The notes beneath the pieces are model-generated. The model saw only the letters and a list, made by a program, of their open reading frames with translations, was not told the DNA's origin and made no database searches. This document shows, piece after piece, positions 1-20,000 of a stretch of 20,000 nucleotides of DNA. Positions within the stretch are counted from its first letter, which is position 1. Each line of letters begins with the position of its first letter. The translations under genes were made by a program, and so were the position numbers. This DNA is from Vermamoeba vermiformis (lineage: Eukaryota): positions 170,776-190,775 of the forward strand of contig JBEWZL010000162.1 of assembly GCA_045837725.1 (NCBI GenBank), given 5' to 3'.

Positions 1-1
1 C

Positions 2-97
2 TTGAATATCAAAGAACAAACCAATTCCATGATCCAGTTTTGTGCTCGGCAGATCCTGCGCAAAAATTATTATGGGGCAATTTATGTTTCAGTTTGA
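2..97 (+). CDS. Possible 3' end of an upstream gene (LNIKEQTNSMIQFCARQILRKNYYGAIYVSV*), partial
   Basis: Open frame from the window edge to TGA at 95-97, converging on the 3' end of the next gene. No diagnostic motif. Confidence 0.3.
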   Translation: MNIKEQTNSMIQFCARQILRKNYYGAIYVSV

Positions 98-194
98 GTG
101 TCGTTCTAAAGCGTTTATTTAGCTTTCATCAACGAAGCATTTATACAAAAAAGACAATACAAGAAAGTTCATTCGAATGACGAACTTTCCAACT

Positions 195-3100
195 TTACAT
201 CCACTGGCTCTTCATCACATCCAGCAATTCTGTCACGCAACCCTTGATAGTTTCATTCTCCGTGTGATTTGTCCAAGGCTGGAGGGCGGGTCGAAGCTCA
301 CTAACCACTTGATGAGTTACTTGTGTATCGCGTAACAACAGCGTGCCCAGTGTGACAAGTGTCTTGTGCACCGTGTCGTGATCTGCCTGGTTCTTCAACA
401 ACTACAACACCGCATTAGATACGGCCACACCAACAATGAGTTCCTTACCTTAACAGCAAGATTCGCTGCTTTGATCTTCGCTTCTGTATTTTCTCGTGAA
501 GTTGGCGAGTTGAAGAAAATGACCGAGTAGCTAATAGCTAACGTTAGTAAAACGGCGCTAATACATTTGCCAAAAGATACGTACTTCAGCAGGACACTAG
601 CAATAATACTCGCGAGATTCTTGTCGGCAACGAAGGCCATAGCACCACCAACAATCTTGTCCAGAATAACATCTTGGTACTGCAACAAAACTGTGTTAGA
701 TATCTTATAAAAATGACGACTATTGACGTACCAGTCGCAAGCTAGGCACGAAGTCCGTGTGCGCGAACAAATTGGAGACGAACTTCAAGCCCAGCATGAA
801 GTTGATCTTGGAGATATTTTGCTCTACAAGACAGGTTAGTATTACTAATTCTCTAACTACGATATGTATAGACGTACCAGGGACATTGGTGAAATTCAAT
901 AATATCTTCAACAGGTCACGTTCTTGGTTCAAATCAAAATCTTTGGTCATTTCAACGAAGCGCGTGCTCTTCGACTTGAAATAAGCGTCTGTGTACTTCA
1001 TCAGCTGCATAGCTGCATGTTGGTGCAACACTAAGATACGCAAAATATCCAATGCTACATATAAATCGTTAATGGGAGTGCACCTTCGAAAGTGAGAATG
1101 AGATCCACGTACCAGGGAAGACTTTATCAGCGGGCCATTGAAGCAGCTTCCAAATGACGTTCAACTCTTCAGTCATAAAAGTTGATGCCTGCGTGTTCTC
1201 AGCGTACTGTTGCAACGAGGCCACTGTTCGTTCCAAGAATTTAATTTCCGTGGCGTCCAAGGCCATTGCAGGGTTCAATTTGCCAACAGGATCGTTGAAC
1301 GATAATAACTTGGCCAGAATTGCCTCGTACTTTCCTTGACTGTACGTCAGCGGCTTAGCCTACGATTATCAAATGGTTACTCTCGTGCAACTAGATCTGA
1401 AATATTTTTAGCCTTACTTGGAATGGGAAGTGATTGTATTTCTTGTTCATTTCGAGGACGCGGAGCAAAGGATCGCCGGGCTTCAACAAATCTCTAATCT
1501 TTTTCTTGACGATGGCCTCAGGGTGCTCGATGAAGTACTTTTGATTGTTTCGCACGAACAACGCGACTTTAGAGTGCTGTTGAACGAGGTTCTCGCGGAT
1601 GCAAAAGTCCATTGCCACTTGTTCGGGGTTGTCTGTGACGTTAAATCCGAGAGGTCGTTTCAAGCGATTTGAAACTGCAACACTTCTGATCACGTCATAC
1701 TCCCGCTCATCGAGAACGTCTTCTTCTGTTATAGACATGCCCTCGGTCATGTCGGATTGATCTTTTTCTTGTTTTTGTTGGATTTTCGAGAGATCATCTT
1801 TCTGGCGCAAGAGTTTTTCTCGCTTCATTTTGATTTTTTCTAATTGTTTCAAGTCTTGCCTGATTCGTTTCATCTCTTCGGACTCGTTTTCAATGTCCAT
1901 CGGATCATCGTCGCTCGAGTCTGGATCGACGCCCGCTTCAGGATCTTCGTCCTCAACGCCACTCGTGTTAATTCTGAAGAAGCCTTTGCCCGGGATAAAC
2001 ACCATCTTATCGCCCTTTTTAGGACTCTTTTGTGCGGATTCATCTTGTGATTGCAATTGTTGAATGAGTGCCATTAATTTCAATTGATTCTCCATTTCTC
2101 GTTGTCTTCGTTCTGCAAAGGCCACGCGTTAGTTTACGCACCGCTGGTAACAATAGTAATATTTAAATATAAGATACTAACCTAGTAACATCCTCACGCT
2201 GGCTTCTAGTTTCTCTTGTAAGCTTCTCGAGGCCTCGCGATCTTTTGCAATCTCGTCCGAGTCACGCAAATTGTCGTCGTTTGACATCAAACTTTCAATT
2301 TCAGGCATGACCTCTTCCAAATCTGGACGCAAATAATCTTCTATTTTTTCATTCTCGTGTAATGTGTTTTTAAATGCCATATCTAATAGCGGCCAGTCTA
2401 CTTGCTCGCCTGCAGAAAATATTATGAGCATTGATAAACAAATCAAAGTATCTTTTGAATATTACCTTCAAGCATCACTAGTGGCACGTAATGATTTTTA
2501 TAATGCGAGCTCCAAGCTAATGCCAACGGTCTGGCTTTACACTCCTAAAATAGATTACGTTTTCAGTGAATAACGTCAATATTGATGATGAGACATAAGT
2601 ATCCCAAAATGAAAGCCATTAATTACCTGTGCTCCGTGGCGTGTTGGCAAAAATAAGGCGGCTACACCAAGCTGAATTAAAAACGATTAGAACGAGTTTC
2701 TGAAACGGATCTGCAACGAAACAACAAGAATTTTTTCAGAATAAAGAGGCGTTGTTATTTCTGTTATGCACGATCATGATGACCTGTTATTATGCATAAA
2801 AATACGGTGACGCCTCTTAAATATTTAAGAAAATCGAGATCGCAAATTCCTGGTTTTGTGCGGTCCCAAAATTTACGGCAGAACTACAAATATTATATGT
2901 CATAAATAATTTTACATACCTCGCCCATGCCGTAGCGCTCAATATCTTCATCTGAACCGTAAATAATAATTGGTCGTTTCAACACGTTGGCCATCGCAAA
3001 AACGTGAATAAATTGTAAATGTTGACCTTTTTCCGATGCTTGATGTAATATTTGCTCGAATTCTTTTTCTTCATATTTTTCTGCGCTTATTTTCTTATAC

Positions 3101-3414
3101 CACTCAAGATTCGTTGAGAGCTCTTCGTGCAGAGACTTCCTTAATAATTCCCAGAATATCTCTACTCCCCACATGGCACGAGAGAGTGCGTGAAGTAAGC
3201 AGTTACCATCTCCTGTCGTTTGTAGAGGTACCAGCTTAACAGGCATGAACTCTCGGACTTGCTTCGATATAAAATCGATAGTCTCCCATTGCACTATTTC
3301 GAAGAATTTCTCTTGATTATTTTTGACTGATTTTGGCAGCTTGAAGGTTGTATTGGTGGATGGCAGCTCTTTGTGAAGGAGTTTTTGACCGTATTGTAAG
3401 CAGAAAATACACAT
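195..3414 (-). CDS. VCPIP1-like OTU deubiquitinase fused to PFU and PUL domains (PLAA/Doa1/Ufd3-like C-terminus), about 813 aa, 11 exons
   Basis: Exons 3414-2920, 2671-2627, 2544-2466, 2409-2182, 2112-1418, 1359-1113, 1054-878, 823-732, 679-585, 530-449 and 401-195 join in frame through GT..AG introns (2442 nt). OTU Cys box TTGDGNCLLHALSRAMWG and His box LAWSSHYKNHYVPLV. PFU-like YDVIRSVAV..LGFNVTDNPEQVAMDFCIRENL. PUL-like HFPF..AILAKLLSFN, WPADKVFPALDILR, ASVLLNYS and KTLVTLGTLL. Confidence 0.85.
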
Positions 3415-3710
3415 TGGTTTGCTTGTGAATACAAATATATACTAATAAATACAGCACACCTTCTATTTACAATGCGTGTTCTTCTGGCATAAAAAATTCG
3501 CGAACAAGTCTTTGGCAGAAATTGGAATTTCTATCGTGGCTTAACTGCAAAACTTGGCTTAAACTATCTAGCTGCGCTTCGTTGCGGCATTGCTTCCTAC
3601 TTCTCCAAGCAACTACCACGCATGAGAAACGAACAAGGCGTCTGAGGTCCCAGCATTATGGATTAGGTGCGTAGCAATATCTCTTGCTTTGTTTGAGTAT
3701 TAGTGCAGCT

Positions 3711-3787
3711 TTCTTCTATGATGATACAAATTTTACACAGACCTGTTCTGAAAAATAATGAACGATACTGTAAACCTGACGCAAGAA
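3711..3787 (+). ncRNA. SNORD25: Box C/D snoRNA, SNORD25/snR56-like; predicted guide for 2'-O-methylation of SSU rRNA G (yeast Gm1428 equivalent)
   Basis: Box C ATGATGA 3718-3724. Guide CACAGACCTGTT 3736-3747 is complementary to conserved 18S AACAGGUCUGUG. D' CTGA 3748-3751, D CTGA 3776-3779, terminal stem TTCTT/AAGAA. The D'+5 rule points to the first G of AACAGG. Confidence 0.85.
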
Positions 3788-3945
3788 ATAACCCCTCTTA
3801 TTTTTTTGGTTGATGCGATCGTGAATATATTTTCTAATATTTTTTTTCTCAAGTGCAGAGTCCAATCTCGTCGTTTCTTTGCAATGTCATGGCTTTGGTA
3901 AGCTATTTTATTCAAAATTAATTTTTTCAACAACAAATCCGCGAC

Positions 3946-12330: not shown

Positions 12331-13595
12331 ATGGACAACCGATCCGAAAACGTGATCTTGGTCGTTCTCGATGGTGTTCGCACTCAAGAGATGTTCGGTG
12401 GCCTAGACAAGCATTTGGTCACTCAAATTGTGCAAAAGAATCATCCTAATCAAAAGGCTGAAGATCAGCCGTTTTTTAAAAAGTACTGGGCCGAGACAGC
12501 CGAAGAGAGACGACACAAGATGATGCCGTGGCTATGGGGCGAATTTTTAAAGAATCATGGATGCATCGTCGGAGATAGACACAACGGTACGTTACACATC
12601 TACATTTTCATGAATAGATCTAGCCAAGTAACTCACGCTAATGTGATGTGTAGGATCGGTAGCCCAAGTCGCAAACAAATATAGATTTTCGTATCCAGGC
12701 TATTCTGAATTACTCACGGGCACGCCACAAGACGCCATTAACACTAATGACTTTGGACAAAATGTCTTCCCGACCATTTGCGAGTTCATCAAAGAGAGAT
12801 TCCAATTGGATTATAATCAAGTAGCTGTGTTTGCTTCGTGGCGTAACTTGAAGGATGTAAGTTGTGAGCACATAAGTCACGTGTCACTCTCTGACAGATC
12901 CGCTCGTTCCTAGGTTGCAGAGCGCAAGAAAGGCACAATAATCACCAACGCAGGATATGATCACTATGAGCACCCTGATCCGCTCGTGCGATATCTGAGT
13001 GACATGCAGTTCAAAACATTGACACCATTCAAGGAAGTCAGACACGATAGTTTCACGCATCGGTTCGCACTTACGCACATGAACTCGCACAAGCCAAAGT
13101 TTATGTTCTTAGTAAGCCTCCACCTTCTAATGATTTATAGTGTACACGTTGTTAACAACTTATTACTAGGGATACGGCGAACCCGACGATTGGGCGCATC
13201 ACGACAGATACGATTTGTACTTGGAGTCGTTGAATCAAATCGACCATTATCTCAAAGAACTCTGGGAGTTTATTAACAGCGACCCTCACTACGCAGGCAA
13301 GACATCCTTGATTATCACCACTGATCACGGTCGAGGCGAGACTTTGGCTGACTGGCACAATCACGATTTCGATATTGAAGGCGCGCAATATGTTTGGATG
13401 GCTTTCGGATCACCAGCACTGTCACATCGTGGAAATATTTTGCCGTCAAGCAACACTGACAAGCACGAGTGGCGATCCAATCAAGTCGCAGCAACGCTTC
13501 TCGAGTTGTTAGGCGTGCCTCACACTGAGTTCAGCGATACGATGGGCAAGCCTATTGATCTGTTTTTCAACAAGAGTAGCGCTGGTACTCTTTAA
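12331..13595 (+). CDS. Alkaline phosphatase superfamily metalloenzyme of the bacterial 'phosphoglyceromutase/AP protein' type, 4 exons
   Basis: Motifs NVILVVLDGVR, FSYPGYSELLTG (Ser nucleophile), VAVFASW, RHDSFT, GEPDDWAH and IITTDHGRG. Three canonical introns restore the frame. Confidence 0.85.
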
Positions 13596-14498: not shown

Positions 14499-16480
14499 AT
14501 GAGAAGCAACATTCAGCGGCACTCCTTAGCACTCATTTTATTGTTTGCAGCCGTTATGGAAGCTGCTAATTCGTCACGCGTTTGTCCCTCGCAATTACAG
14601 AGCCTAATTGACAATCTTCTTGCAAACAGTCCCATTGTAACCCGTTCACGCTGGGGAATTTATGTAGAAGAGATTAATAATCAAACGTGGCAAGGAAAGC
14701 CTCTTTACTCACGTAGGTATTTTGATTAATTTAATGGAGATATTTTCAAATCCGGTTAGGATCAGTTAGATAATAATCAAATAATAAATTAATCGTAGGG
14801 GATGCTGTAAACTATTTTTTGCCTGCCTCTACGAATAAAGTGCTGACATCTGGATCTGCCTTGCTGTCTCTCGGCCCTGACTACGCTATTAAAACTGACG
14901 TAACAACCTACACGAGCAAGACTACAGCAGCTAATAGTAGAAGCACTGTAGATGTATTAATTGTGACAGGTAACTTTTCTAACTCGTTTTCTGAGCTGAT
15001 CAAATTTCTCAAGGACGCGGTGACCCCTCTTTGACCTTCCAGAAGCTTGATCAGCTCGCCAGTCAGCTGTCTCAAAGCGGAATAACCACTGTTAATTTTG
15101 TTGGCGTCGATCAATCGTATTTTAAGGCGTTACAACCACCAAGCACTTGGGATTGGGGCGATCTCACCGCCAATTACGTAAGTTACGGAAATATACGATG
15201 CATATTAATAACTGGAATATAGGGTGCTCTGCCGACACCTTTTGTATTGAATGAGAACGTTATTACCTTTACTGTTGTCCCGCCTTCAGATCCGAGTCAA
15301 AATGTCCAAGTCAAGTTCTACAATAGCGCCGATCAAGACTATTTGTTGAGCAAGTTAATCATTAACGTTGCTACGAGTAAGTTTGATTGCGCATTAGCTT
15401 ATATCTATCTTTTTATTTTTCGTTTATTTTCCTAAAAGCCAGCTGGATCTATTATTATTTGTACTAATAATTTTTTGCAGCCTCAACTCCGAATGTCAAT
15501 ACACTCGATGCTAATTATCAATGGGGCACCACTTATCTCAAGTTGACCGGTCAAGTTAGCGTTGGCGCGCAATCGTTCGATGTTAGTGTTGCTGTAGCCG
15601 ATACAGCGCTCTATTTCCAAAAACATTTCGTGGCTGCGTTGAAAAACAACAATATTCAAGTCACACACGAGGGCTTGCACACGATGGAAGCGATTAAACA
15701 ACAGATCGCGTTCGACGATAGCAACGAGTTCATCATTCAATCGGCGGCTTCGCTCACCTCGCCGCCTTTATATGTTATGATGAATAATACCTTGCAATGG
15801 AGCGTTAATTTGGAGGCTGAAATGTGGCTCAGACATTTAGGAACAAATTTCATCTCAGATCGTAAGTCCAAAAGGAAAGTACTAAAGAAATCATGTACTA
15901 ATATGACATCGTAGCTAATCTCGACGAGGTTGACAATGGCTTGGCTAAAGTCAGATCCGTTCTCACTAATTTGGGCGTGGACGGTGATCTGTTCATTCAA
16001 GCAGACGGCAGTGGATTGAGTCGCAAGAATTTAATCAGTCCCAAATCACTCGTACTGTTCTTAAGAGCTATATTACAGAAGGCACCTTCATTCGTGAACA
16101 TTCTTCCTGTTGCTGGTACGAAAAAGATGCGATCCGTTACCTTATCTTACCTGGCACTAATTTATCATATAATTTATATAGGCGAGTCTGGTACACTGAA
16201 GTATAGATTCGTTGGCACTCCTGCTCAAGGCGTTGTGTTTGCAAAGACTGGTAAGATTGGATCGAGATCTGTAAGAGGTTCTCGTGAGCCTAATTGAATA
16301 TCGATAACTATAGGATCGTTGTCTGATACATATACATTGGCTGGGTATGTCTTGCGTCCCGGCCAGTACAATCCTATCGTATTCTCAGTGATGGTAAATC
16401 AAAACGCCGCTGGATCTGGACCTGCTCGTCAGTTGATGGATCAAATTGTAGTTCTCTTAGCTCAATTGCAATACTGTTAG
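14499..16480 (+). CDS. dacB: Secreted D-alanyl-D-alanine carboxypeptidase/endopeptidase (PBP4/DacB, peptidase S13)
   Basis: Signal peptide. SxxK (PASTNK), GRGDPSL, W.WGDL, SxN (SVN), DGSGLSRKNLISP, PVAGESGTL and KTG (FAKTGSL) motifs. Multi-exon. Confidence 0.9.
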
Positions 16481-19317: not shown

Positions 19318-20000
19318 CTAGGTCCGCACCAATATGAACTGCATGCTGCTCGTGCAGGCCACTAAAATATCGCCGAAACAATAAATCAGCGAGAACGTGT
19401 TTGTTTTCTCGGCCGCCAAAACATTGCAATTCTTCAGCAAGATGATCGGAATGTTCCGCGGTGTTCTCGACACGTGATAATCAGTATTCATAGTCTTCGT
19501 ATGCGTGCCTATAATATTCAGCTGTTGGTTCGGTCTGAAACTTAGCGCCAAAATTAGTTTTTTGTCTTGATGACATTTGTAATCGGTGTTTGGCTTGGGT
19601 AATTCGCCCGTATAAAAATCAAAGCTCATCGAGTTGTTAATAAGGTATTTGTCTAATAAAAAGAAATTTCCTTCAAACGAAATCTGCAGCTCGTTCATGG
19701 GATAATGATAAACCTCGCGCTCCATCACATTTTCGTTTGTTTTGTAGACCAGCACGTTCTTATCGTCCAAAAATAATAGGCCCTTGCTTAAATCAGATGA
19801 AACGTATATTCCGTTGAATTTTAGCAATTGTCTTGGTTGATCGTTGGATTCGGATTCGTCAACTTCTATTTCTGGCAATCTAATGTTGTAATATTCTGCT
19901 TCGCGTAGTACTCTATTATGGGACATATCGTGTGGTATTTCCAGCTCGCCAGTTCTTAGAAAAGACAAGATCGGTTTAAAGTACTCGCCATCCCGATCAA
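19318..20000 (-). CDS. KCTD-type BTB/POZ (T1) domain protein, 5' partial
   Basis: DRDGEYFKPILSFLRTGEL..VLREAEYYNI is the C-terminal signature of the T1/BTB domain. The frame stays open to the window edge. Confidence 0.85.
   Translation of the reverse strand, partial: DRDGEYFKPILSFLRTGELEIPHDMSHNRVLREAEYYNIRLPEIEVDESESNDQPRQLLKFNGIYVSSDLSKGLLFLDDKNVLVYKTNENVMEREVYHYPMNELQISFEGNFFLLDKYLINNSMSFDFYTGELPKPNTDYKCHQDKKLILALSFRPNQQLNIIGTHTKTMNTDYHVSRTPRNIPIILLKNCNVLAAEKTNTFSLIYCFGDILVACTSSMQFILVRT

Follow-up and report, generated by a model that had tools for sequence, protein, structure and literature searches.

Ubiquitin on substrates of the unfoldase Cdc48/p97 is handled by cofactors docking at different places on the hexamer, and a gene of the amoeba Vermamoeba vermiformis raises the question of whether two such cofactors, a VCPIP1-like OTU deubiquitinase (DUB) and the PFU-PUL module of PLAA/Doa1/Ufd3, have been joined in one protein, and of what that protein would do. 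The gene lies within a 20,000-nucleotide stretch of contig JBEWZL010000162.1 (the window), to which all coordinates refer. Otu1 is described as trimming chains on Cdc48 substrates in a review that lists as open questions which DUBs besides Otu1 free substrates from Cdc48, and why the loss of tail-binding Ufd3/Doa1 depletes ubiquitin (PMC5543420). The PUL and PUB domains are described as the sole known domains that bind the extreme C-terminus of p97 (PMC5389986).

This article describes the structure and expression of the gene, the identity of its domains, the distribution of the architecture among Amoebozoa and the function that may be proposed for it. The protein most useful for comparison is VCPIP1 (VCIP135), which has about 1220 aa and comprises an OTU (approximately residues 200-390), a stalk (human residues 556-666) that contacts D2 near the C-terminal tail, and a C-terminal UBX-L that binds the p97 N domain. 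The supposition, made from sequence alone, that VCPIP1 contacts p97 by domains other than PFU and PUL agrees with the account of its UBX-L domain and stalk as the parts that reach p97 (bioRxiv 10.1101/2024.09.08.611915). In human VCP-VCPIP1 the OTU lies beneath the exit of the pore, with the stalk close to the C-terminal tail (10.1101/2024.09.08.611915). VCP stimulates human VCPIP1.

Gene Structure, Splicing and Expression

The coding region occupies positions 195..3414 of the minus strand and consists of 11 exons, which a scripted splice check joined in frame from 3414 to 195 into 813 codons and a TAA stop (2442 nt). All ten introns are of the GT..AG type, with lengths of 47-248 nt, and six of them carry a CTAAY motif 16-20 nt upstream of the acceptor. 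The start ATG at 3414 is the first ATG downstream of an in-frame stop. A candidate polyadenylation signal, AATAAA, can be read on the minus strand at 114-119, 76 nt past the stop, though reads give it no support.

All exons are on the minus strand. Exon 1 (2920..3414; aa 1-165) encodes an N-terminal helical arm and the OTU Cys box, and its joint to exon 2 (2671/2920) was found in a contig of RNA run X1 and in raw RNA reads. Exon 2 (2627..2671; aa 166-180) has this upstream joint, and across its downstream intron the orthologue P0001 is continuous. The OTU His box is encoded by exon 3 (2466..2544; aa 181-206; X1 spliced contig record 2, joint 2408/2465, cut +1), and the end of the OTU and the start of a long helix by exon 4 (2182..2409; aa 207-282), both end joints of which occur on a single X1 contig. 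Exon 5 (1418..2112; aa 283-514; joints 2112/2182 and 1358/1417) comprises a helix, a weak beta-hairpin, an acidic disordered stretch, a 45-residue helix, a PFUC unit and connecting helices. The remainder encodes the PUL domain: exon 6 (1113..1359; aa 515-596) with the first repeats and its joints seen, exon 7 (878..1054; aa 597-655; joints 1054/1113 and 823/878), exon 8 (732..823; aa 656-686) and exon 9 (585..679; aa 687-717), both with joints, exon 10 (449..530; aa 718-745; joints 530/585 and 401/449), and exon 11 (195..401; aa 746-813 and stop) with the last repeats, of which an X1 contig covers 206-401.

Spliced contigs and raw reads thus provide joints that agree with nine of the ten predicted introns. 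The most informative molecule is a 1311-nt spliced contig of run X1 carrying exons 3, 4, 5 and 6 with three precise in-frame GT-AG splices, in which the OTU His box is joined to the linker, the PFU and the start of the PUL. The contig runs on from the OTU exons into the PFU exon, between which two separate genes would have given transcript ends, and the two junctions that the sequence-only reading had singled out for RNA support (2466/2409 and 2182/2112) both lie on it. Intron 1 is additionally crossed by 4 and 1 raw RNA-seq reads from runs X21 and X23, which are very thin (14 and 3 reads) and, in supporting this intron, are silent on expression level and transcript ends. The spliced form of intron 2 (2545-2626) was not seen in RNA, where the X1 contig enters the intron for 61 nt and then stops. 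Because no RNA run covers 3251-3510, the 5' end of the coding sequence rests on the identical N-terminus of P0001. This orthologue has 806 aa and 89% identity end to end, and is continuous over all ten exon junctions; the contigs on which it was called do not exceed 2737 nt and are too short for introns of such size.

It could be argued that neighbouring OTU and PFU-PUL genes were misjoined here or that the assembly is chimeric, given the unseen splice of intron 2, the lack of any one contig spanning the whole coding sequence and the fact that contigs by themselves are no proof of a single transcript. Against this stand the three exact splices of the 1311-nt contig, the colinearity of P0001 over the ten junctions from such short contigs, and the recurrence of the architecture in proteins derived from the transcriptomes of six amoebozoan species, and an artefact of this kind is considered extremely improbable. 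Variation in the aligned reads and contigs bears on the frame itself: among 27 variant sites, 26 are coding, and these divide into 23 synonymous changes and 3 replacements, all 3 in the linker, with the OTU exons contributing 6 synonymous variants out of 6. The ratio of 23 to 3 therefore indicates purifying selection on this frame. The locus is confirmed as a single spliced, expressed and selectively constrained gene, and the eleven in-frame exons and protein of about 813 aa first proposed from the DNA letters were all recovered in place by the splice check, the identity to P0001 and the RNA joints.

The OTU Domain

In single-exon translations, exon 1 matched Pfam OTU (PF02338) over its cut-off (4.8e-15). 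The closest solved sequences in a PDB phmmer search were VCPIP1 (1.2e-22, 83 bits), OTUD7B (1.9e-17, 66 bits), A20 (2.5e-16, 62 bits) and TRABID (3.1e-9, 39 bits). At E <=0.01 the search gave 15 matches, to VCPIP1, OTUD7B, A20, PLAA, TRABID and OTUD5, with no Otu1/YOD1 chain among them, and the VCPIP1 matches stop at query residue 210. In Foldseek the predicted structure has E-values from 1e-9 to 1e-6 against VCPIP1, A20, TRABID and Cezanne, and VCPIP1 (8yka, 8.7e-10) was the closest among the OTU folds. On these comparisons the domain is classed as A20-type and is nearest to VCPIP1 among the OTU subfamilies.

The catalytic triad is intact. C72, N197 and H198 align residue for residue with C219/N353/H354, named as the catalytic triad of VCPIP1 (10.1101/2024.09.08.611915), and the whole triad is likewise present in P0001. 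Cys72, the predicted nucleophile, is encoded by TGC at 3199..3201 and Asn197-His198 by AAT CAT at 2491..2496, both on the minus strand. The sequence-only reading of a VCPIP1-like OTU whose Cys/His pair is intact is borne out by Pfam, PDB phmmer, the triad alignment and Foldseek. In the family alignment Cys and His are each found in 30 of 32 rows. The third triad residue is Asn in 19/32 rows, a count that weighs against the function proposed below, and a few paralogues have lost catalytic residues: P0016 (Cys->Ile, His->Ile), P0022 (Cys->Arg, His box gapped) and P0013 (His->Val).

VCPIP1 is thus the closest solved OTU by sequence and by fold, whereas the amoebozoan protein is 813 aa long, begins with the OTU and carries PFUC-PUL in place of UBX-L. 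No UBX or UBX-like Pfam family matched P0001 at E <=0.1 or the exons of the gene at E <=1.

The Linker and the PFUC Unit

The OTU and the PFUC-PUL region are separated by a helical, acidic linker of ~200 residues, in keeping with the acidic, coiled-coil linker noted from the sequence ahead of the PFU- and PUL-like domains; a helix is predicted at 256-303 of the P0001 model (P0001 numbering), and the exon-5 model has a mean pLDDT of 75.3. Pfam PFU matched exon 5 at 2.9e-6 with 27.8 bits (cut-off 26.2), over positions 46-110 of the 113-position profile, and matched P0001 with 25.3 bits. The matching part is a PFUC-like unit of two strands and two helices at about aa 413-481 (1517..1723, minus strand). 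In VIA-align its predicted structure ranked Doa1 3l3f (Z 7.7) and PLAA PFUC 2k89 (Z 6.3, 67/80 residues aligned) as the top 2 of 48,161 chains, and the top 4 Foldseek matches to the PFUC region are all PFU structures, both results being modest (E 0.02-0.1 in Foldseek).

Of the Pfam PFU profile the protein lacks the N-terminal half and has the C-terminal structured unit ("PFUC") alone, and throughout the family the PFU matches always start at profile position 40 or later. The PFU domain of the sequence-only reading therefore holds for its C-terminal unit, matched by Pfam, 3l3f and 2k89, but not for the missing half. A beta-hairpin in the linker (P0001 317-329; residues 35-47 of the exon-5 model) was considered as a displaced N-terminal PFU half and was not adopted. 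No PFU structure aligned over it, and it is modelled at low confidence, with a block-mean pLDDT of about 44-46 when the whole protein is modelled and of 58-67 in the model of exon 5.

The PUL Domain and the p97-Tail Pocket

An Armadillo-type PUL domain extends over about aa 514-802, from the end of exon 5 to exon 11 (231..1420, minus strand). In P0001 the Pfam PUL match (1.6e-40) covers profile positions 3-276 of 277, a complete domain, and the single exons of the gene match in profile order, with exon 6 at 4.6e-12 and weak matches in exon 8 (E 0.13) and exon 11 (E 0.0038, profile 215-277). The predicted fold matches PLAA 3ebb_A in Foldseek (E 1.8e-10, TM 0.84 normalised to the target, rmsd 3.1 A). 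The PUL-like domain seen in the sequence is thereby corroborated by profile and fold, and of the PFU and PUL profiles, whose failure to match would have spoken against the architecture, the PUL profile matches over its full length and the PFU profile over its C-terminal part.

Docking on the tail was approached through 12 PLAA residues described as lining the pocket for p97 Leu804/Tyr805 (PMC2804184), which were mapped by alignment to 3ebb. Seven are identical (I551, K554, F611, D615, R618, L658, N697). Two further positions show conservative substitutions (L657M, R661K), and the other three differ, as N547K, Q550A and A654I, where A654I is an extrapolation to one residue past the alignment. 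The corresponding residues are K524/A527/I528/K531 and F595 in exon 6, D599 (PLAA D615) and R602 (PLAA R618) in exon 7, M665, L666 and K669 in exon 8, and N707 (PLAA N697) in exon 9. Most of the affinity of PLAA for p97 is credited to F611, K554, D615 and a backbone contact (PMC2804184), and these three side chains are all retained here. Among the family rows D615 is kept in 24/27 and R618 in 26/27. The three differing pocket residues count against docking, as do the family values for K554 (12/27) and F611 (17/26). The conserved core of the pocket suggests that the protein may dock on the p97 tail.

Pfam, the PDB sequence search and two AlphaFold models, of P0001 and of exon 5, concur on OTU, PFUC and PUL as the three modules of the protein. 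It shares with PLAA/Doa1/Ufd3 the PFUC-PUL pair, in the same order and fold, and the core of the p97-tail pocket. It differs in the missing N-terminal PFU half and in having a catalytic-type OTU and the long linker where PLAA has a WD40 propeller, for which no Pfam match was found in any exon or in P0001.

Distribution Across Amoebozoa

OTU and PUL were found together in 20 of 38 scanned relatives. Those with an organism name are all amoebozoan and represent six species in three phyla. In Arcella intermedia a canonical WD40-PFU-PUL protein occurs alongside the fusion, and the canonical proteins P0056, P0075 and P0083 show strong WD40 matches in the same Pfam scan. Since a canonical PLAA-type protein coexists with it in Arcella, the fusion is to be regarded as an additional paralogous cofactor and not as a replacement; the idea that a DUB had replaced the WD40 propeller describes the architecture accurately, but not the proteins present in that species.

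Members of the family carry the automatic database names 'Deubiquitinating protein VCIP135', 'ubiquitin-conjugating enzyme E2 N', 'molybdopterin converting factor small subunit' and 'hypothetical', and the nearest protein-library matches outside the family are named VCIP135-like. ESM Atlas look-alikes of P0001 gave no usable match. The sequence-only reading did not recognise the architecture as described, and the literature search likewise found no description of OTU with PFU-PUL, but the proteins form a widespread amoebozoan family already present in public protein sets. Both parts, the VCPIP1-type OTU and the PFU-PUL of PLAA/Doa1, are known; it is for their combination that no description was found.

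A first PUL tree of 48 rows was poorly resolved, with 25 of 45 inner branches open and the OTU-linked PULs split 16 + 6. After removal of 12 fragments of unclear architecture and of 10 cluster members that were near-duplicates or redundant, a single clade of OTU-linked PULs was not rejected in an AU test (p-AU 0.56), the constrained tree being 2.73 lnL units better. A single origin of these PULs is compatible with this result, which does not amount to proof.

Proposed Function and Alternative Readings

The function considered probable is that of an active cysteine DUB of the A20/VCPIP1 branch, joined by a linker to PFUC-PUL and tethered through it to the Cdc48 tail at the pore exit. The very end of the Cdc48/p97 C-terminal tail (Leu-Tyr-Gly for p97; a Leu-Tyr motif is assumed in the amoebal Cdc48) would be captured in the Armadillo groove of the PUL, which would hold the OTU at the D2 face, the exit or trans side of the unfoldase. 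At this face the OTU may strip ubiquitin from substrates or rescue ubiquitin as chains leave the pore, perhaps assisted by a weak ubiquitin-binding PFUC unit; the PLAA PFU is cited as binding monoubiquitin weakly, with a Kd of about 1 mM (PMC4828692). Human VCPIP1 puts its OTU at the same position by another route, with UBX-L on the N domain and the stalk. In Otu1/YOD1, too, an OTU-family DUB is combined with a module that docks on Cdc48, but this module, UBX-L, sits on the N domain at the entry (cis) side, whereas the fusion protein would use PUL on the C-terminal tail (exit side).

A rather unlikely alternative is an active DUB whose PFUC-PUL does not dock on Cdc48 and whose Armadillo recruits other partners, for example in endosomal/MVB sorting, independently of the unfoldase. 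Doa1 is reported to have functions independent of Cdc48 binding, the PUL included, and a conserved PUL surface beyond the p97 pocket is reported as probably binding other ligands (PMC2804184); the three differing pocket residues and the moderate conservation of K554 and F611 fit such a protein. The near invariance in the family of D615 and R618, which form the floor and bridge of the pocket, argues for docking instead, as do the identity of F611, K554 and D615, to whose side chains the affinity is mainly ascribed, and the fact that the sole characterised member of this OTU type is itself a p97 cofactor. The losses in P0016, P0022 and P0013 raise another reading, a catalytically dead adaptor whose OTU fold binds ubiquitin and takes the role that the WD40 propeller, described as the main ubiquitin binder of Doa1 (PMC4828692), has in that protein. 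This is improbable for the gene studied here, since its triad, like that of P0001, is whole and aligned with VCPIP1, Cys and His are kept in nearly all family rows and the variants in its OTU exons are exclusively synonymous.

Possible Implications for Cdc48/p97-Coupled Deubiquitination

With the tethered DUB as the preferred reading, it may tentatively be suggested, at somewhat less than even confidence, that Amoebozoa possess a third, so far undescribed coupling of a DUB to Cdc48/p97, in which a VCPIP1-type OTU is tethered via PUL to the C-terminal tail and works at the pore exit. If this is true, the protein would be a natural 'Rosetta-stone' fusion that physically couples the long-unexplained role of Ufd3/Doa1/PLAA in ubiquitin homeostasis with ubiquitin removal at the trans face of Cdc48, and an exit-side VCPIP1-type OTU would be ancient and reached via different docking modules in animals and amoebae. 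A conserved natural fusion of such an OTU with PUL, the one tail-binding module known apart from PUB, would argue from evolution, and independently, that ubiquitin removal at the exit face has been selected. The protein would also offer a compact single-chain study system, with 813 aa and neither UBX-L nor propeller. The family is misnamed in databases and merits a name of its own.

Gene structure and transcript support

The minus-strand gene and its OTU-PFU-PUL architecture are almost certainly real. The eleven exons proposed by the sequence-only reading (3414-2920, 2671-2627, 2544-2466, 2409-2182, 2112-1418, 1359-1113, 1054-878, 823-732, 679-585, 530-449 and 401-195 for exons 1 to 11, minus strand) were joined by script and gave an open frame of 2442 nt, comprising 813 codons and a TAA stop, which begins at ATG 3414, the first ATG downstream of an in-frame stop. 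All ten introns are of the GT..AG type, with lengths of 47-248 nt and a G+C content of 25-47%, and six contain a CTAAY branch-point-like motif 16-20 nt upstream of the acceptor.

Mapping of contigs from two sets and raw reads from two RNA-seq runs to window positions 1-3900 gave joints that match nine of the ten predicted introns (401/449, 530/585, 679/732, 823/878, 1054/1113, 1358/1417, 2112/2182, 2408/2465 and 2671/2920, minus strand; cut +1 at 1358/1417 and 2408/2465). A single 1311-nt contig of set X1 has exons 3-4-5-6 spliced together and thus connects the OTU His box through the linker to the PFU-like unit and the beginning of the PUL domain; the junctions 2466/2409 and 2182/2112, on which the sequence-only reading had asked for transcript evidence, are both spliced on it. 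Raw-read depth was low (14 reads from run X21 and 3 from run X23), with intron 1 crossed by four and one of these reads, respectively, and none of the four sets covers 3251-3510. No spliced intron 2 was seen in the two contig sets and two runs; an X1 contig spliced at introns 3, 4 and 5 keeps at least 61 nt of intron 2 (2545-2605, minus strand) and then ends. Judging from the sequence, retention would stop the reading frame 16 codons further on; such a contig may derive from a not yet spliced intermediate or reflect regulated retention of the intron. The mapped reads and contigs display 27 variant sites, 26 of them coding (23 synonymous and three replacements, at residues 346, 378 and 388, all within the linker).

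Other features occur in the window. At 3609-3897 (plus strand), contigs of X1 and X14 contain a GT..AG joint (3664/3857) that marks an adjacent gene, transcribed divergently to the OTU-PUL gene. With only about 200 nt between ATG 3414 and the first exon seen of this neighbour, both genes may share a bidirectional promoter. Peptidase_S13, the D-Ala-D-Ala carboxypeptidase family, typically bacterial, was matched by two adjacent ORF pieces at 15471-16294 (plus strand; 6.4e-8, profile 201-301, and 2.8e-18, profile 308-397), and given the intron-bearing eukaryotic surroundings these may belong to a horizontally acquired gene. Further ORF pieces match the Metalloenzyme superfamily (PF01676, 1.7e-5; 13170-13592, plus strand) and BTB_2 (PF02214, 3.7e-7; 19321-19998, minus strand, extending beyond the window end).

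Orthologue and domain architecture

When longer proteins were searched by word index with exon 5, the sole match was the 806-aa protein P0001, for which OTU, PFU and PUL are the precomputed Pfam domains. By blastp the spliced window protein is identical to it at 721 of 813 positions (89%), colinear from Met1 to the final residue, and none of the seven gap positions falls at the ten exon junctions. The source contigs of P0001 and its cluster mate do not exceed 2737 nt, which leaves no room for a 2421-nt ORF plus such introns, and are therefore most simply transcript contigs. The Pfam matches of P0001 are PUL (1.6e-40, profile 3-276 of 277), OTU (3.2e-14) and PFU (1.8e-5; 25.3 bits, slightly below the cut-off).

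An AlphaFold2 model of P0001, built from a 33-row family alignment (mean pLDDT 81.2), shows an OTU domain, predicted with confidence, from residue 1 to about 235. A long helix follows at 256-303, then an acidic, disordered stretch at 305-356 that contains a weak hairpin (317-329), and a further helix at 359-389. Two strands, at 416-421 and 427-432, are accompanied by helices (438-471), and residues 518-805 form an all-helical repeat domain. When this model was compared with the PDB by Foldseek, the PUL domain of PLAA ranked first (3ebb_A; E 1.8e-10, TM 0.84 normalised to target, rmsd 3.1 A), followed by the OTU domains of VCPIP1 (8yka, 8.7e-10), A20, TRABID and Cezanne; the Doa1 PFU-PUL pair 3l3f/3pst/3psp was also matched (about 3e-6 to 2e-5).

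The OTU domain was detected in the translation of exon 1 alone (4.8e-15), and VCPIP1 is its best match among PDB sequences (1.2e-22; OTUD7B 1.9e-17, A20 2.5e-16, TRABID 3.1e-9). Cys72 aligns with VCPIP1 Cys219 and Asn197-His198 with Asn353-His354, the residues named as the catalytic triad (C219, H354, N353) in the accessible part of the VCP-VCPIP1 cryo-EM preprint (10.1101/2024.09.08.611915). The window encodes them at 3201-3199 (Cys) and 2496-2491 (Asn-His) on the minus strand, in agreement with the intact Cys/His pair claimed earlier, and a pseudo-enzyme is thus an unlikely reading of this gene; it suits three paralogues that are devoid of Cys or His. In these (P0016, P0022 and P0013) Cys is replaced by Ile or Arg and His by Ile, Val or a gap, with F, D, R and K of the PUL pocket all retained. 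Two of the three clusters have Arcellinida names (P0013, Pyxidicula; P0022 cluster, Arcella), and from their sequences they are likely pseudo-DUB adaptors inside the same family. The N-terminus Met-Cys-Ile-(Phe/Trp/Leu)-Cys (window 3400-3414, minus strand) occurs in six of the 13 rows of family alignment A2 that include an N-terminus (P0001, P0002, P0004, P0006, P0043 and P0154), and these paired cysteines right behind the start might, on sequence grounds, constitute a lipidation or metal site.

The PFU domain proposed by the sequence-only reading stands for its C-terminal unit, but its N-terminal half is absent. Exon 5 matches the Pfam profile only from position 46 to 110 of 113 (2.9e-6; 27.8 bits, cut-off 26.2), and all ten PFU matches in the family begin at position 40 or later (38 relatives scanned); of the five canonical WD40-PFU-PUL proteins in the same scan, P0088 starts at 41 and the other four at position 1 or 2. 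The family alignment contains no counterpart of the canonical N-terminal half. The window's own exon 5 was folded (231 aa, pLDDT 75.3), and its four top Foldseek matches are all PFU structures: 2k89 (E 0.02, 69 columns), the 80-residue human PLAA 'PFUC' titled a ubiquitin-binding domain in the PDB, 3psp and 3pst (rmsd 1.2-1.4 A over 54 columns), and 3l3f. VIA-align, which is independent of Foldseek, ranked 3l3f first (Z 7.7, rmsd 2.0 A over 59 residues, model 132-190 on Doa1 379-439) and 2k89 second (Z 6.3, 67 residues) among 48,161 representative chains. The models, with modest scores concordant with Pfam, indicate that the retained part is the unit solved as an independent domain. The hairpin at P0001 317-329 (window about 1972-2010, minus strand), flanked by the long helix and the acidic stretch, is of low confidence and conserved among closer relatives; the searches with the exon 5 and P0001 structures gave no match over it, and judging from the model it might be what is left, in a displaced position, of the PFU N-terminal half.

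Distribution of the family

An exhaustive phmmer search with P0001 against 1.84 billion representatives gave 1033 matches at E <=1e-3 and 37 at E <=1e-30. Among the 150 matches listed, 12 match both the OTU and PUL parts of P0001 (blastp, E <=1e-3), and 38 that were at least 445 aa long and either ranked high or had multiple matched stretches were scanned with Pfam. OTU and PUL are combined in 20 of these, eight with PFU as well; the others comprise a truncated OTU+PFU protein, a PFU+PUL protein with an OTU region lacking its Cys, two with PFU+PUL only, five WD40+PFU+PUL, seven with OTU only and two that join OTU to an E2 domain (UQ_con). In the P0086 cluster the 682-aa representative has PFU and PUL only, and the 961-aa P0173 of the same 90% cluster matches the OTU region, which indicates that the fusion, cut short in gene calling, accounts for some of the 'PFU-PUL only' entries. 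The VCPIP1-like OTU-UQ_con proteins of the streptophyte algae Chlorokybus atmophyticus and Spirogloea muscicola (P0032, P0036 and P0165) are another unusual OTU fusion.

Twenty clusters were looked up; 11 are environmental or Logan records and the nine with an organism name, from six species, all belong to Amoebozoa (Discosea, Tubulinea and Evosea): Balamuthia mandrillaris, Luapelamoeba (Luapeleamoeba) hula, Clydonella sp. and, with two paralogues each, Pyxidicula operculata, Arcella intermedia and Pelomyxa schiedti. In their source databases they are entered as 'Deubiquitinating protein VCIP135', 'ubiquitin-conjugating enzyme E2 N', 'molybdopterin converting factor small subunit' or 'hypothetical protein'. 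A. intermedia has, besides its fusion members, a canonical WD40-PFU-PUL protein (P0075). The PUL-domain tree was poorly resolved, and grouping 22 OTU-linked PULs against 14 WD40-linked ones was not rejected by an AU test (p 0.56), run after the removal of 12 fragments whose architecture is unknown and of 10 cluster members that were near-duplicates or redundant.

Proposed docking on the Cdc48/p97 tail

The PUL-like domain recognized earlier was borne out by the near full-length profile and fold matches of P0001, by sequence similarity to PLAA (3ebb, 2e-12) and, exon by exon, in exon 6 (4.6e-12, profile 5-80), exon 8 (0.13, 128-148) and exon 11 (0.0038, 215-277). According to the accessible part of PMC2804184, p97 Leu804 and Tyr805 occupy a PLAA pocket with Asp615 and Leu658 as floor and Asn547, Gln550, Ile551, Lys554, Phe611, Arg661, Leu657, Ala654 and Asn697 as walls; Arg618 is linked to Asp615 via water, and most affinity comes from Phe611, Lys554, Asp615 and a backbone contact. 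On the phmmer alignment of P0001 with 3ebb (chain index + 491 = PLAA number, checked at five residues), Ile551, Lys554, Phe611, Asp615, Arg618, Leu658 and Asn697 are identical, Leu657 to Met and Arg661 to Lys are conservative changes, and Asn547 to Lys, Gln550 to Ala and Ala654 to Ile are altered, the last extrapolated one residue past the alignment end. The window protein has the same residues as P0001 (K524, A527, I528, K531, F595, D599, R602, I662, M665, L666, K669 and N707), and across the family alignment, among the rows with a residue at the position, 24 of 27 retain Asp and 26 of 27 retain Arg; Phe is conserved in 17 of 26 and Lys in 12 of 27. The main rival explanation, that this Armadillo domain is used independently of Cdc48, is considered rather improbable.

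According to the accessible text of PMC5389986, binding to the extreme C-terminus of p97 is known for no domains other than PUL and PUB, and that of PMC5543420 reports that Doa1/Ufd3 binds the Cdc48 tail and that ubiquitin is depleted upon its loss for reasons still unclear. Human VCPIP1, as far as the preprint text covers, has its UBX-L on the N domain and its OTU beneath the pore exit beside the C-terminal tail, where it is stimulated by VCP (10.1101/2024.09.08.611915).

Every domain is already known, and so is, in general terms, the fusion of a DUB to a module that docks on Cdc48. The sequence-only reading did not recognize the architecture as described, and the searchable full-text literature, a scope outside which subscription journals and database architecture listings lie, likewise returned general p97/DUB papers and no description of OTU-PFU-PUL; the terms 'VCPIP1' and 'PUL' are both missing from a study of DUB evolution that mentions Amoebozoa (PMC5381560). 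This domain combination, and the docking of a DUB on the tail side, appear undescribed. In the window protein the PUL domain itself would be the Cdc48 tail anchor, the helical and acidic linker of roughly 200 residues would provide reach, and ubiquitin conjugates at the exit face would be the target of the OTU domain, to which PFUC would add a weak ubiquitin contact; we infer that this mechanism as a whole, a PUL-anchored OTU working at the exit face with PFUC assisting, is probable.
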